Both the position numbers and the translations under genes were made by a program. 5,096 nucleotides of DNA, taken from the IMG/VR virus record IMGVR_UViG_2531839237_000024. One strand, written 5' to 3'. Shown here piece by piece: positions 1-5,096 of the stretch. Source of the stretch: a virus (Duplodnaviria > Heunggongvirae > Uroviricota > Caudoviricetes). A model generated the notes under the pieces. The model was not told where the DNA came from and searched no databases. It saw nothing but the letters and a program-made list of their open reading frames with translations. Each line of letters opens with the position of its first letter. Position 1 is the stretch's first letter.

Positions 1-12
1 ATCGTTGAAGCG

Positions 13-2025
13 TTGATGAAAATGCCAGAAGTTAACGCCATGTATCCTGAACTTAAACTGCATGCCATCGGGTGGGTTAAGCATAAATGTGAGCCTGGCG
101 CTAAATGGCCTGAAATTCAGGCAGAGATGCGCATCTGGAAAAAACGTCGCGAAGGTGAACGCAAGGAAACCGGAAAATACACGTCTGTTGTTGATCTCAC
201 CCGCGCCAGAGTCAACCAACAGAACACTGAAAACGCTGCTGAAAAAACCGGGGCTGTCACTGTTGCCATTCGCCGCGAATACAAACAGACATGGAAAACA
301 CTCGACAATGAACTGGCCTGCGCCCTCTGGCCCGGTGATGTGGATGCAGGAAACATTGACGGTACCATCCATCGCTGGGCGACAAATGAGGTTATCGACA
401 AGGATCGCGAAGACTGGAAGCGTATCTCAGCATCAATGCGCAAACAGCCCGAAGCACTTGGCTATGACCGTCAGACTATTTTTGGCCTTGTTCGCGAACG
501 TCCGATCGATATTCACAAAGATCCCGTTGCACTGAACAAATATATCAGTGAATACCTGACGACAAAGGGCGTGTTTGAACATGAAGAAACAGACCAGAGC
601 TCTACTGATGCTCTCCAGCCGTCAGCAGCACAAACTGCTCCAGTGGAGACGGCAGAATCCGATACTCAAAAAAATGAAATCCTGGTGGAAGCTGAACCAT
701 CTGTAGAGCGTGAAGGACCATTTTATTTCGTCTTTACCGATAAGGGCGGGGAAAAATACGGCAGGGCAAACAAACTTTCTGGTCTGGACAAGGCGCTGGC
801 TGCCGGCGGTACCGAAATCTCAAAAGAAGAATATTTTGCCCGAAAAAATGGCACATACACGGGCTTACCGCAAAATGTGGATACCGCTGAAGATTCCGAA
901 CAATCAGAGCCGGTAAAAGTTACCGCTGACGAAGTAAACAAAATTATGCAGGCAGCCAATATCAGCCAGCCTGACGCCGATAAATTGCTTGCTGCATCAC
1001 GTGGTGAATTTGTTGAAGGGATTAGCGACCCGAATGATCCGAAATGGGTGAAAGGGATCCAGAGTCGCGACGCTGAGGACCAGAATCAGCCCAACGTGAA
1101 ACAAAATGAGCCAGAAGCGGAACAAAACAGCCCGGATACGCAACAAAACGGGCCAGAAGAACAACAACCAGAACCAGCAGTGCAACAGGAACTGGAAAAA
1201 GTTTGCACCGCATGCGGTCAGACCGGTGGCGGCAACTGTCCTGACTGTGGTGCGGTGATGGGGAACGCAACCTACCTGGAAACATTCGATGAAGAGAATC
1301 AGGCTGAAGCTCAGAAAAATGATCCGGAGGAAATGGAAGGCACTGAACATCTGCACAAGGAGAACACTGGCAGCGATCAGTATCACGCCAGCGATAATAA
1401 AACTGGCGAAACAGCAAATCCCTTAATTAAAGTGAACGGTCATCATGAAATCTCATCCACCAGCAGGTTGTGGCACCATCTGATGATTGACCTTGAAACA
1501 ATGGGAAAAAATCCTGATGCGCCAATAAACTCTATAGCCGGTAAGTTTTTTGATCCGGCAACCGGAGAGATGGGGCCAGAATTCAGCAAAACTATCGATC
1601 TGGAAACCGCAGGTGGGGTCATCGATCGGGACACCATTAAGTGGTGGCTGAAACAGTCACGCGAAGCACAATCCTCCATTCTGACCGATGAAATCACGTT
1701 GGATGATGCACTGCTGCAATTCCGGGAATTTATCGACGAAAACTCCGGTGAATTTTTTGTTCAGGTCTGGGGTAACGGTGCAACTTTCGACAACGTGATT
1801 TTACGCCGTTCATATGAACGGCAGGGGATCCCCTGCCCGTGGCGTTACACCAATGATCGCGATGTAAGAACGATGGTTGCTCTGGGACTGGTGATGGATT
1901 TCGACGCAAGAACGACTATTCCATTCGAAGGTGAACGCCATAACGCCCTGCACGATGCGCGTTACCAGGCAAAATACGTTTCAGCCATCTGGCAAAAACT
2001 GCTCCCGAGTCAGGCTGATTTTTAA
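13..2025 (+). CDS. Multi-domain prophage accessory protein: unknown N-terminal domain, acidic repeat linker, CxxC-x7-CxxC zinc ribbon, C-terminal DEDDh (DnaQ/RNase T-like) 3'-5' exonuclease domain
   Basis: Uninterrupted 670-codon frame. C-terminal region (about aa 485-665) carries DEDDh exonuclease motifs in the right order: MIDLET (nt 1483-1500), WGNGATFD, HNALHDA. The start is uncertain: the track uses TTG at 13, ATGs follow at 16 and 22, and the frame is open back to nt 1, so the gene may begin upstream of the window. Confidence 0.8.
   Translation: MMKMPEVNAMYPELKLHAIGWVKHKCEPGAKWPEIQAEMRIWKKRREGERKETGKYTSVVDLTRARVNQQNTENAAEKTGAVTVAIRREYKQTWKTLDNELACALWPGDVDAGNIDGTIHRWATNEVIDKDREDWKRISASMRKQPEALGYDRQTIFGLVRERPIDIHKDPVALNKYISEYLTTKGVFEHEETDQSSTDALQPSAAQTAPVETAESDTQKNEILVEAEPSVEREGPFYFVFTDKGGEKYGRANKLSGLDKALAAGGTEISKEEYFARKNGTYTGLPQNVDTAEDSEQSEPVKVTADEVNKIMQAANISQPDADKLLAASRGEFVEGISDPNDPKWVKGIQSRDAEDQNQPNVKQNEPEAEQNSPDTQQNGPEEQQPEPAVQQELEKVCTACGQTGGGNCPDCGAVMGNATYLETFDEENQAEAQKNDPEEMEGTEHLHKENTGSDQYHASDNKTGETANPLIKVNGHHEISSTSRLWHHLMIDLETMGKNPDAPINSIAGKFFDPATGEMGPEFSKTIDLETAGGVIDRDTIKWWLKQSREAQSSILTDEITLDDALLQFREFIDENSGEFFVQVWGNGATFDNVILRRSYERQGIPCPWRYTNDRDVRTMVALGLVMDFDARTTIPFEGERHNALHDARYQAKYVSAIWQKLLPSQADF
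1081..1185 (+). repeat. Five tandem degenerate 21-bp repeats inside the large CDS, encoding heptapeptides QNxPxxx
   Basis: Translation reads QNQPNVK / QNEPEAE / QNSPDTQ / QNGPEEQ / QPEPAVQ, with recurring caaaa(c/t)...cc(a/g)ga units in the DNA, immediately upstream of the zinc-ribbon codons. Confidence 0.7.
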
Positions 2026-2039
2026 TGTTCAACCCGGAT

Positions 2040-2067
2040 CGCCGCTAACGGCATATAGTTAGCGGCG
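2040..2067 (+). promoter_or_regulatory. Perfect 10-bp inverted repeat with 8-nt loop between the large CDS and the DUF4224 gene; possible RNA hairpin or dimeric protein-binding palindrome
   Basis: cgccgctaac (2040-2049), loop ggcatata, gttagcggcg (2058-2067); all 10 pairs are Watson-Crick. It is followed by gttgtgag, not a U-tract. Confidence 0.4.
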
Positions 2068-2083
2068 GTTGTGAGATATAGCT

Positions 2084-2287
2084 ATGAGCAGCATATTTTT
2101 AACCGAAAATGAATTGCAAACGTTAACGGGCTGCAAATATGCAAGCCACCAGCGCAACTGGTTAATAAAAAATGGGCTTCCGTTCTATACCAATCGTAGT
2201 GGAAAACCGATCGTCAGTCGGGAACTGTTTACCTGTATAAAAACTTTACCACCACGTGAGGCTGAACCTGATTTCGGTGCGATCTAA
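2084..2287 (+). CDS. Small DUF4224-family protein, putative excisionase/recombination directionality factor
   Basis: 67-aa ORF directly upstream of int. The N-terminal pattern FLTxxELxxLTGxK...WLxxNGLPF...GKPIV matches my recollection of DUF4224 proteins found next to prophage integrases. Its stop overlaps the int start (TAATG at 2285-2289), indicating translational coupling. The excision function is inferred from position only. Confidence 0.75.
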   Translation: MSSIFLTENELQTLTGCKYASHQRNWLIKNGLPFYTNRSGKPIVSRELFTCIKTLPPREAEPDFGAI

Positions 2288-3366
2288 TGGGAAGACGAAG
2301 GAAAAATCCCGAACACGAAAAATTACCGCCAAAGGTATACCCCAATAAATATAGTGTATGGAAACCGACATCCAGAGAATCTGTAACCTTAACTGCAATC
2401 GAGGATGGTTTAGCCGCATTATGGAAAAAGTATGAAGAAACGGTTAACCATCGCGATCGCGCAATGACATTTGGGCGTTTGTGGGAAAAATTTCTCGCCA
2501 GCGCCTATTACAGCGAGCTTAGTCCTAGAACTCAAAAAGATTATCTGCAACATCAAAAAAAGCTGCTGGCCGTATTCGGTAAGGTGCTGGCCGATTCTGT
2601 AAAACCAGAGCACATCAGACGATACATGGACAAAAGAGGCGAGCAGAGTAAAACGCAGGCAAACCATGAAAAAAGCAGTATGTCGCGCGTTTATAGTTGG
2701 GGGTATGAGCGAGGATACGTGAAGGCTAACCCATGTGCAGGTGTAAGTAAATTCAAGGCCAAAAACCGCGAACGATATGTAACCGACAAAGAATACCAGG
2801 CAGTATTAAGCGTTGCACCTCTTCCTGTTTTTATCGCAATGGAAATTGCCTATCTGTGTGCAGCGAGGGTTTCCGATGTGTTATCGCTGAAATGGGAGCA
2901 GATTGGAAACGACGGGATCTTTATCCAGCAAGGGAAAACAGGGAAAAAACAGATAAAAGCATGGAGTCCACGATTACAGGCGGCGATCGAAAAAGCAAAA
3001 CAGTTACCAACATCCGCCTATGTAATCAGCAATCAATACGGCAACCGATATATGTACAAAGGCTTTAACGAAATGTGGGTAGAAGCAAGAAATCACGCAG
3101 GCAAAATTTCAGGTATTTTAACCGACTTCACCTTTCATGATCTGAAGGCGAAAGGAATTTCAGACTATGAAGGAAGCAGCCGGGATAAGCAACTTTTCTC
3201 TGGTCACAAAACCGAAGGGCAAGTGCTAATCTATGACAGGAAGGTTAAAGTTTCACCAACACTTGATGTCCCGTTACCTGAAAATATTCCAAGAAAATAT
3301 TCCAAGAAAATATTCCAAGTAATTCCAAGTGTGATTTTTGTCACTGACTTAATGATGTGTAAGTGA
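2287..3366 (+). CDS. int: Lambda-family tyrosine integrase (site-specific recombinase)
   Basis: 359 aa. N-terminus MGRRRKNPEHEKLPPKVY resembles the lambda Int arm-binding N-terminus MGRRRSHERRDLPPNLY. Catalytic residues align with lambda Int at R194, K217, H284, H307 and Y316 with matching spacing, except that K287 sits where the second catalytic Arg is expected. Ends 8 bp from the tRNA-Ser 3' end. Confidence 0.93.
   Translation: MGRRRKNPEHEKLPPKVYPNKYSVWKPTSRESVTLTAIEDGLAALWKKYEETVNHRDRAMTFGRLWEKFLASAYYSELSPRTQKDYLQHQKKLLAVFGKVLADSVKPEHIRRYMDKRGEQSKTQANHEKSSMSRVYSWGYERGYVKANPCAGVSKFKAKNRERYVTDKEYQAVLSVAPLPVFIAMEIAYLCAARVSDVLSLKWEQIGNDGIFIQQGKTGKKQIKAWSPRLQAAIEKAKQLPTSAYVISNQYGNRYMYKGFNEMWVEARNHAGKISGILTDFTFHDLKAKGISDYEGSSRDKQLFSGHKTEGQVLIYDRKVKVSPTLDVPLPENIPRKYSKKIFQVIPSVIFVTDLMMCK
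3280..3329 (+). repeat. Three perfect tandem copies of 13-bp gaaaatattccaa plus a degenerate fourth copy, within the 3' end of int; candidate arm-type Int binding sites
   Basis: Perfect copies at 3280-3292, 3293-3305 and 3306-3318, then gtaattccaag at 3319-3329. They lie about 45-95 bp from the tRNA 3' end, comparable to the direct-repeat arm sites beside the lambda att core. The repeat is certain; the arm-site role is inferred. Confidence 0.8.
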
Positions 3367-3374
3367 TTGAATTT

Positions 3375-3464
3375 TGGCGGAGAGAGGGGGATTTGAACCC
3401 CCGGTGGAGTTGCCCCCACTCCGGTTTTCGAGACCGGTCCGTTCAGCCGCTCCGGCATCTCTCC
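3375..3464 (-). tRNA. serU: tRNA-Ser (anticodon CGA), class II tRNA with long variable arm, 90 nt
   Basis: Minus-strand reading gives GGAGAGATGCCGGAGCGGCTGAACGGACCGGTCTCGAAAACCGGAGTGGGGGCAACTCCACCGGGGGTTCAAATCCCCCTCTCTCCGCCA. A 5-bp anticodon stem (CCGGT/ACCGG) encloses the loop CTCGAAA, giving anticodon CGA, and the 3' CCA is encoded. Adjacency to mtfA and tRNA-Asn matches my memory of the E. coli serU locus. Confidence 0.93.
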
Positions 3465-3499
3465 GTTCAGATGGTTGCCATGATGCCAGGAAATTTGGC

Positions 3500-3508
3500 A
3501 TTTTAACA
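3500..3508 (-). promoter_or_regulatory. Possible extended -10 element (TGtTAAAAT) of the tRNA-Ser promoter
   Basis: Minus-strand TGTTAAAAT lies about 35 nt upstream of the tRNA 5' end. No good -35 hexamer sits at 16-18 bp spacing, so the call rests on the extended -10 alone. Confidence 0.3.
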
Positions 3509-3557
3509 GTCCCTGTCCGTGCAATTTTGTTCAAGTGACGAGTTTGCGAGCAAAACG

Positions 3558-4355
3558 ATGATTAAGTGGCCCTGGAAAGTACAAGAATCAGCACATCAAA
3601 CAGCCCTTCCCTGGCAGGAAGCACTATCGATCCCCCTTTTAACGTGTCTGACGGAACAGGAACAAAGCAAATTAGTCACTCTTGCCGAACGTTTTTTACA
3701 GCAAAAGCGGCTTGTTCCTTTACAGGGCTTTGAACTGGATTCATTAAGAAGCTGCCGGATAGCACTTCTATTTTGCCTACCCGTTCTGGAGTTAGGACTG
3801 GAATGGCTGGATGGTTTTCATGAAGTCTTAATTTATCCTGCGCCATTTGTGGTCGATGATGAATGGGAAGACGATATCGGTCTGGTGCATAACCAACGTA
3901 TTGTTCAGTCAGGTCAGAGCTGGCAGCAAGGGCCTATCGTTTTGAACTGGTTGGATATACAAGATTCTTTTGATGCTTCTGGTTTTAACCTGATTATTCA
4001 TGAAGTCGCTCATAAGCTGGACACCCGTAACGGCGATCGCGCCAGCGGAGTTCCCTTTATTCCGTTGCGTGAGGTTGCTGGCTGGGAACACGATCTTCAT
4101 GCTGCAATGAACAACATTCAGGAAGAAATCGAATTGGTTGGCGAGAATGCGGCGAGCATTGATGCTTATGCTGCCAGTGATCCTGCTGAATGTTTTGCCG
4201 TACTTTCTGAATATTTCTTTAGCGCCCCAGAACTTTTTGCTCCTCGTTTCCCTTCATTGTGGCAACGTTTCTGCCAATTTTATCAACAAGATCCTTTGCA
4301 GAGACTGCATCACGCTAATGATACAGACTCGTTTTCGGCGACGAATGTTCATTAA
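3558..4355 (+). CDS. mtfA: MtfA (Mlc titration factor A), zinc-dependent peptidase
   Basis: Protein from ATG 3558 begins [24 protein letters not shown] and contains the HExxH zinc-binding motif ([10 protein letters not shown]), matching my recollection of E. coli MtfA (265 aa). The track start at 3519 is a GTG that adds 13 residues; I prefer ATG 3558. Confidence 0.92.
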
Positions 4356-4408
4356 TTAACAACTTTGCAGATTAATTAACCAATTGAAATGACTTATGAA
4401 ATTTAGTG

Positions 4409-4437
4409 TTGACAGACAAGGTACCGCTAAGTAATAT
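4409..4437 (+). promoter_or_regulatory. Sigma70 promoter of tRNA-Asn: -35 TTGACA, 17-bp spacer, -10 TAATAT, followed by a GC-rich discriminator
   Basis: TTGACA at 4409-4414, TAATAT at 4432-4437, then gcgcccc at 4438-4444, typical of stable-RNA promoters under stringent control. The tRNA starts at 4456. Confidence 0.6.
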
Positions 4438-4455
4438 GCGCCCCGTTCACACGAT

Positions 4456-4531
4456 TCCTCTGTAGTTCAGTCGGTAGAACGGCGGACTGTTAATCCGTAT
4501 GTCACTGGTTCGAGTCCAGTCAGAGGAGCCA
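4456..4531 (+). tRNA. asnT: tRNA-Asn (anticodon GTT), 76 nt with encoded CCA
   Basis: TCCTCTGTAGTTCAGTCGGTAGAACGGCGGACTGTTAATCCGTATGTCACTGGTTCGAGTCCAGTCAGAGGAGCCA, anticodon loop CTGTTAA. E. coli has several identical Asn tRNA genes; the asnT name is assigned from the position between mtfA and yeeJ. Confidence 0.93.
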
Positions 4532-4620
4532 AATTCTAAAAATTCGCTTTTTTAGCGCAATGTCACTGACCTTAGTTGAACATTGTTTTTTAACGGATAG
4601 CGGGTTTTTAACATCTTAAG

Positions 4621-4651
4621 CGCCCTCGACCTTTATGGTTGAGGGCGTTTT
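4621..4651 (+). terminator. Probable intrinsic terminator downstream of tRNA-Asn
   Basis: GC-rich hairpin cgccctcgac / gttgagggcg (one mismatch in the stem) followed by tttt at 4647-4650. Confidence 0.45.
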
Positions 4652-4844
4652 GCTATGAACGCCATCACCATTTTCCCCTCGATTATAAAACTTGAGTTAT
4701 TCAGTAGTCTCCCCTCTTGCAACTCACATCCAAAACTGCCTAACGAAAAGTTATTAATTTTCAATCATATTGCTATCAGGATTTACATTTTTTCGCTGTG
4801 CTAGAAAGGGCGCATTTATGTTAGCTCGTTCAGGGAAGGTAAGC

Positions 4845-5096
4845 ATGGCTACGAAGAAGAGAAGTGGAGAAGAAATAAATGACCGACAAATCTTATGCGG
4901 GATGGGAATTAAACTACGCCGCTTAACTGCGGGTATCTGCCTGATAACTCAACTTGTGTTCCCTATGGCTGCGGCAGCACAAGGTGTGGTAAACGCCGCA
5001 ACCCAACAACCAGTTCCTGCACAAATTGCCATTGCAAATGCCAATACGGTGCCCTACACCCCAGAGCGCCGAATCCTGGCTGGCCCCCGTGGACTC
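4845..5096 (+). CDS. yeeJ: N-terminal part of a YeeJ-like inverse autotransporter adhesin (partial, runs off the window end)
   Basis: Open frame to the window end, translating MATKKRSGEEINDRQILCGMGIKLRRLTAGICLITQLVFPMAAAAQGVVNA..., which matches my recollection of the YeeJ N-terminus. A GGAAGG Shine-Dalgarno precedes ATG 4845; an in-frame ATG at 4818 is an alternative start. Not in the ORF track because it has no stop in the window. Confidence 0.65.
   Translation, partial: MATKKRSGEEINDRQILCGMGIKLRRLTAGICLITQLVFPMAAAAQGVVNAATQQPVPAQIAIANANTVPYTPERRILAGPRGL

Follow-up and report, generated by a model that had tools for sequence, protein, structure and literature searches.

An integrase gene that stops just short of a tRNA gene raises the question of which partner, phage or host, supplied which part of the tRNA, and where within it the two were joined. 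The window analyzed here (the whole stretch of 5,096 nucleotides) holds such an arrangement: the integrase stop codon TGA occupies positions 3364-3366, the encoded CCA end of a tRNA-Ser gene starts at position 3375, and between them lies an 8-bp phage spacer, ttgaattt (3367-3374), part of the stretch 3360-3372. A sequence-only reading of the window had pointed to these 8 bp, which the ARAGORN prediction and the open reading frame list confirm, and had argued that so short a distance forces the crossover into the tRNA gene. The conclusion stands but the argument fails, as the corresponding distance in strain Sakai is 52 bp; the crossover is placed within the tRNA because of a duplicated block of 61 bp and not because of the 8-bp spacing.

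Four plus-strand open reading frames (13-2025, 670 aa; 2084-2287, 67 aa; 2287-3366, 359 aa; 3519-4355, 278 aa) were listed for the window, and ARAGORN identified two tRNA genes, one for tRNA-Ser(CGA) on the minus strand (3375-3464) and one for tRNA-Asn(GUU) on the plus strand (4456-4531). The tRNA-Ser gene is complete and corresponds to serU, as annotated by RefSeq in Sakai, EC4115 and K-12, which gives the gene order int, serU, mtfA, asnT. The 670-aa frame coincides with an annotated exonuclease gene in the matching genomes, and the 278-aa frame matches the Pfam family MtfA (Peptidase_M90). The 359-aa product is a prophage tyrosine integrase with Tyr316 as catalytic residue, identified by Pfam (phage integrase PF00589, E=6e-11) and by matches to lambda Int structures. 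Upstream of int and overlapping its start, in the position of an excisionase gene, lies the plus-strand frame of a small DUF4224 protein (2084-2287; Pfam PF13986, E=3.8e-15); the putative Xis of Sp14 was reported to be devoid of a DNA-binding motif (PMC2669165). A scan for terminators and promoters around the junction found none.

O157:H7 genomes of the EC4115/TW14359/RM6067W type match the window with 99.9% identity over positions 1-5075, and genomes whose match is 13 bp shorter do so with 99.2%. At its other extremity, the last ~35 bases of the window (5062-5096) do not continue into yeeJ, unlike K-12 or other O157 genomes, and instead match (97.6%) a prophage gene for a SASA-family carbohydrate esterase sited elsewhere in O157 genomes; this segment is either a chimeric end of the window or contig or a rearrangement breakpoint.

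The far end of the prophage lies beyond the window and was read from genomes 99.9% identical over the window. In EC4115, a prophage of ~44 kb sits between yodB and serU with its integrase gene at the serU end, and its far end carries espJ and a gene with EspF repeats (tccP-type). We looked there for a tRNA-derived core, since the sequence-only reading had made its proposal depend on one, and found a 61-bp copy of tRNA nucleotides 30-90 (L003 1618-1678) directly after the yodB-side host DNA and followed by unrelated phage DNA (tatgctatgg...). The matching block in the window spans 3375-3435 on the minus strand, and its second copy is present at the far prophage end in both EC4115 and Sakai, with two mismatches. 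A three-way alignment of the K-12 attB, the EC4115 far junction and the window located these mismatches at 3406 and 3417 only, the far copy carrying the K-12-type A/T and the int-proximal copy G/C. The 61-nt 'tRNA-Ser' fragment beside yodB is thus a displaced piece of the host gene and not a gene of its own.

The two positions that differ between the copies are also those that distinguish the window from the reference. Aligned to serU of K-12 MG1655 (NC_000913.3 2043468-2043557, between yodB and mtfA; 90 nt each), the window tRNA shows exactly two mismatches: tRNA nucleotide 59 (position 3406) is C here and U in K-12, and tRNA nucleotide 48 (position 3417) is G here and A in K-12. The A-U pair that the sequence-only reading had given for K-12, as opposed to G-C in the window, proved to be exact, and full identity of the reference gene, which would have spoken against the proposal, was not found. 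According to RNAfold, nucleotides 48 and 59 pair with one another in a six-pair helix of the variable arm (G48-C59 here, A-U in K-12), and the double change keeps the cloverleaf, with a minimum free energy of -42.6 kcal/mol compared to -40.6 for K-12. Either single change gives a worse structure or refolding, and the change at nucleotide 59 alone causes the molecule to refold. The K-12 allele is the commoner one: 4246 of 5426 complete E. coli genomes fall into the 95-99% identity band, in which, among the matches listed, the rows that span the whole tRNA align the tRNA part alone at 97.9%, equivalent to two mismatches, and 1178 of 5426 reach at least 99%.

To which side of these bases the exchange took place can be read from the excised form of the prophage. 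Asadulghani et al. 2009 (PMC2669165) amplified by PCR and sequenced the attP junction of circularised Sp14, the prophage of Sakai. In their Fig. S5, attP (P) reads '...cccccggtgg ag...ccactccggttttc gagacc tatgc', with G/C as in R and the right flank as in L, for which the figure gives '...ggt agag...tactcc...'; the Sakai L, P and R sequences contain the 61-bp core seen in EC4115 and the window, its two mismatches included. The figure was read as machine-extracted text in which some letters are dropped, the discriminating bases being clear (PMC2669165). As the excised attP combines the G/C of R with the 'tatgc' flank of L, the excision crossover lies to the right of 3417. Over positions 3225-3470 the sole difference between Sakai and the window is one 13-bp unit, and so the published Sp14 attP result applies to the window as well.

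A host with A/T and a phage with G/C place the crossover between 3418 and 3435, the left bound being the last phage/host mismatch and the right bound the end of identity. The anticodon loop (3426-3432) falls within this interval, together with the 3' strand of its stem and three nucleotides of the 5' strand, and the interval agrees with the earlier expectation of a crossover 5' of the variable arm, near 3421-3437. At least positions 3375-3417 of the working tRNA (minus strand) are therefore certainly phage DNA, namely the acceptor 3' strand with its CCA, the T arm and most of the variable arm, which bears out the suggestion that the 3' half is phage-derived: at 3406 and 3417 the window and the excised attP have G/C, and K-12 and the displaced far copy have A/T. 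The 5' part of the tRNA (nucleotides 1-29; 3436-3464, minus strand) is host-derived, being identical to K-12 and continuous with the host genes mtfA and asnT. Taken together, these results give us high confidence that the window contains the int-proximal junction of the lambdoid prophage Sp14/CP-933U with the chromosomal serU of an E. coli strain of the O157:H7 type, at which a 61-bp copy in attP was exchanged inside the anticodon stem-loop. The complete tRNA-Ser(CGA) gene at 3375-3464 is accordingly a hybrid; the two mismatches act as a natural marker by which the Sp14 crossover is placed within an 18-bp interval, and O157:H7 lysogens carry a serU allele composed of host and phage DNA.

The allele pattern taken alone is ambiguous. 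An ancestral O157 host with G-C, entered by a phage with A-T in its attP, would yield an identical junction if the exchange had taken place left of 3406, within the T arm or the acceptor stem; in that case the phage contribution would be limited to 3375 to ~3405, and the variable arm would come from the host. In line with such a mirror arrangement, a synthetic query representing an empty site with G/C returned 100% full-length matches and ~113 records at at least 99% identity, the free phages KpF5, P7641 and Chris1 carry A-T cores, and the working tRNA has A-T at a few occupied sites that share this int flank. The decisive observation against it is that the sequenced attP of excised Sp14 is G-C (PMC2669165 Fig. 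S5). In addition, six exact-match rows sampled among the matches listed all show the 8-bp phage spacer together with a G-C tRNA, and these lysogens belong to unrelated backgrounds (O157:H7, O145, pig ETEC and human isolates). G-C at an unoccupied site, by contrast, was found in only ~2% of all genomes, a count by allele and occupancy that is approximate, as the phage flank resembles the host flank and alignments run across it. Finally, the identity blocks of KpF5, P7641, Chris1 and ST64B end within 1 nt of the end of the block in the window, just past the anticodon loop, a coincidence left unexplained by an exchange 30 bp away. We therefore consider the reversed assignment of alleles very improbable.

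Regarding empty sites as such, a chimeric empty-site query for unoccupied serU in an O157-like background gave no 100% match, the best match being 99.3% and coming from unrelated lineages. One unoccupied serU with G48-C59 is that of KBN10P04869 (L013 1871-2650), in which the order is zinT, serU, mtfA, with neither prophage nor yodB; its serU-mtfA locus is 97.7% identical to K-12, indicating a divergent lineage at this locus.

Alternatively, the two differences might have arisen by mutation after integration, by host polymorphism or by gene conversion, in which case they would carry no information on the crossover. Such an origin would accommodate the small number of differing positions (two), the ability of tRNA stems to evolve compensatory pairs and the circulation of both alleles in E. 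coli. Against it, both bases of a single copy would have had to change in concert, unrelated host lineages share the identical G-C junction, and the excised circle carries G-C, so that the allele travels with the phage; the probability that we assign to this explanation is accordingly very small. As for a crossover that spares the tRNA, falling within the 8-bp spacer or at the 3' end, which would leave the tRNA wholly host-derived, nothing but the closeness of int and tRNA speaks for it, and we give it almost no credence, as a 61-bp tRNA-derived direct repeat bounds the prophage and phage DNA follows tRNA nucleotide 30 at its far end.

In the integration that best explains these findings, the phage attP carried a copy of tRNA nucleotides 30-90 of serU (61 bp), and the tyrosine integrase exchanged strands with the host gene in the anticodon stem-loop, within 3418-3435. 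The likeliest site of exchange would be the 7-nt anticodon loop itself (3426-3432), which could provide a 7-bp overlap and is flanked by a symmetric stem; the 5-bp inverted repeat of this stem, CCGGT/ACCGG, may represent the core-type half-sites. The working tRNA thereby became a hybrid with a host 5' part and a phage-derived variable arm, T arm, acceptor 3' strand and CCA, and the displaced 3' fragment of the host gene lies ~44 kb away beside yodB. With the G48-C59 of the phage copy taking the place of the host A48-U59, the serU allele expressed by the lysogen deviates in one compensated base pair. In such a reaction, the integrase would presumably bridge arm and core sites, and IHF would bend the DNA, in the manner of a lambda-like intasome.

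The integrase itself matches the lambda Int structures 1z1b/1z1g (E about 1e-9), and its residues R194, K217, H284, H307 and Y316 align with R212, K235, H308, H333 and Y342 of lambda Int. A lysine (Lys287, codon 3145-3147) aligns with the catalytic Arg311 of lambda (HDLK compared to HELR); this lysine is invariant in four aligned family members (Sp14, ST64B and Evi integrases), though Sp14 is known to excise. The N-terminal ~65 residues gave no Pfam match at E=0.001, and a weak match to Phage_int_M, the central domain, covers residues 67-153. In the family alignment, conservation ends near residue 327, and the rest of the tail is the translation of the arm repeats.

These repeats lie inside the 3' end of int (3280-3329, plus strand) and consist of three exact 13-bp tandem units and a fourth motif, which we presume to be the arm-type Int-binding sites of the int-proximal arm. 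By pattern search, ATATTCCAAG occurs at 3284, 3297 and 3310 (3 matches compared to 0.39 expected), and TRF reported the unit GAAAATATTCCAA with a period of 13 and 3.1 copies at 100% match (3280-3319); the fourth ATTCCAAG is found at 3322-3329. In the far arm, an inverted motif, TTGGAATA, is located 46 bp past the core, and a direct exact copy of the motif 105 bp past it (L003 1783-1792). The tandem ATTCCAAG repeats and their far-arm copies are presumed arm-type Int sites of a lambda-like intasome.

The far arm further contains an exact IHF consensus, AATCAATATATTA, 19 bp past the core. This consensus was matched three times in 4 kb compared to 0.43 expected, and one of the matches abuts the tRNA 3' end in host DNA. 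The stretch 3360-3372 is kept among related attPs and is similar to the host flank, and the spacer region 3367-3374 appears, by eye and allowing one mismatch, to be a near-match to the IHF consensus. Based on their sequence, the IHF and arm sites may be regarded as candidate binding sites. As a separate observation, the phage flank past the tRNA 3' end, GTAAGTGATTGAAT (3360-3372), resembles the host flank ATAAGTCATTGATA, the host version being an exact IHF consensus, and the exact consensus positions in the EC4115 far junction are L003 1602-1614 and 1697-1709.

What the hybrid tRNA means for the lysogen depends on whether the exchanged pair matters for function. What seryl-tRNA synthetase recognises in the long variable arm is its length and orientation, not its sequence. 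Since the enzyme reads the arm in this way, the change from A48-U59 to G48-C59 in the serU of the lysogen is probably neutral. That G48-C59 should be non-neutral, together with the related reading that the ~2% of unoccupied G-C serU genes are footprints of past lysogeny and not an independent polymorphism, appears improbable to us; if it were true, Sp14-type lysogeny would amount to a 'lysogenic conversion' of the only tRNA-Ser(CGA) of the cell, with consequences for stability, recognition by seryl-tRNA synthetase or sensitivity to tRNA-targeting nucleases. Insertion into serU, the core of 61 bp and the sequence of attP have all been known since their publication in 2009, and the mechanism is textbook material; the result matters little beyond correct annotation.

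The closest known system is the junction itself: it is that of Sp14 (Sakai)/CP-933U (EDL933) of E. coli O157:H7 at serU, and as such an already known feature. The insertion site serU is shared with Sakai Sp14 (PMC8190617), and the Sakai annotation places 'prophage Sp14' at 2668145..2712172, ending at serU. In common with Sp14/CP-933U are the location between yodB and serU, the int, DUF4224 and exonuclease genes and the junction sequence, as well as a serU regenerated at the int end, with yodB on the opposite side in EC4115 and Sakai. In EC4115 the far end of this prophage carries the effectors EspJ and TccP/EspFU. The window differs from Sakai Sp14 in having three full 13-bp units, as do EC4115-type genomes, whereas two are present in Sakai Sp14 and 689R5. 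Since 13 is not a multiple of 3, loss of a unit shifts the int frame and alters the C-terminal tail, and the integrase has 340 aa with its stop codon 52 bp from the tRNA in Sakai, compared to 359 aa and 8 bp in the window. The 8-bp spacing is consequently a lineage-specific feature, and the window represents the EC4115/TW14359-type variant of Sp14. As to the state of the prophage, the EC4115 copy is annotated as defective: its major capsid gene is truncated, the gene for the large terminase is frameshifted, and IS1203 has inserted into it (L002 19861-20124, 23840-25769 and 30146-31359). This defective state agrees with the literature, in which Sp14 is described as excising only weakly and as not being packaged.

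More distant relatives are ST64B (Salmonella) and the Klebsiella/Citrobacter phages KpF5, P7641 and Chris1, whose integrases are 55-60% identical to that of the window and whose free attP plan was read from their complete genomes. This plan is the same: int, three tandem repeats and a 62-nt 3' fragment of tRNA-Ser(CGA) that stops within the 5' strand of the anticodon stem, followed in the other arm by an inverted and a direct copy of the repeat at matching positions. Their identity block ends 1 nt further into the tRNA (62 nt, ...GAGACCG, compared to 61 nt, ...GAGACC, here). The cores of the Klebsiella/Citrobacter phages have A-T in the variable arm, and the ST64B core, though serU-like, is another sequence that differs at several further positions. 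The arm motif is phage-specific, namely TTTCTCA in ST64B, KpF5 and P7641, TATACCAA in Chris1 and ATTCCAAG here; a motif that co-varies with the integrase at fixed positions is the pattern expected of arm-type sites of a lambda-like integrase.

Several other candidates for a free attP were set aside. vB_EcoS-689R5 and 606R7, the closest matches to a reconstructed attP in the phage collection, are prophage-derived and include host mtfA and asnT, and PhiR70_1, mEp332, ev099 and SerU-LTIIb are not clean attPs but segments resembling the far junction with host flank attached. In PhiR70_1 (L005 1200-1580) and in a circular 64-kb 'plasmid' of E. coli MS 69-1 (L014 2700-3090), ~275 bp of host yodB-serU intergenic DNA is fused to a 62-nt serU 3' fragment with A/T, beside an AraC-family gene and IS remnants, and in mEp332 (L007) the ~57 nt examined correspond to this host flank too. 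The segment common to PhiR70_1, MS 69-1 and mEp332 has the appearance of a far junction that was captured, not of a minimal attP.

Compared to lambda Int, a heterobivalent tyrosine integrase that uses arm-type and core-type sites and IHF, and its attP, the catalytic domain aligns, arm motifs are found on both sides of the core, and an IHF consensus is present in the other arm; the three tandem arm motifs next to int recall lambda P'1-P'3. The systems differ in the core, which is 15 bp long and intergenic in lambda, whereas here a tRNA gene is targeted and the identity block spans 61 bp, in the arm sites, which lie farther from the core here (about 100-140 bp), and in the lysine at the position of lambda Arg311. 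With regard to integration into tRNA genes in general, the Islander description (PMC4383910) presents a tRNA gene that is split by the element and restored by the copy it brings, with a displaced 3' fragment at the far end. The identity block here likewise runs from the anticodon region to the tRNA 3' end, and features of tRNA-integrating elements are present in a tyrosine recombinase gene beside a regenerated tRNA, a 61-bp direct repeat and an attP with a tRNA fragment. In tRNA-targeting elements, the exchange site is expected in the region where this block ends, just beyond the anticodon loop. Integration into tRNA genes by phages and genomic islands has reportedly been catalogued by Williams in 2002 (NAR). 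Measured against these systems, the junction is a typical anticodon-region insertion into a tRNA gene, with nothing of substance that sets it apart.
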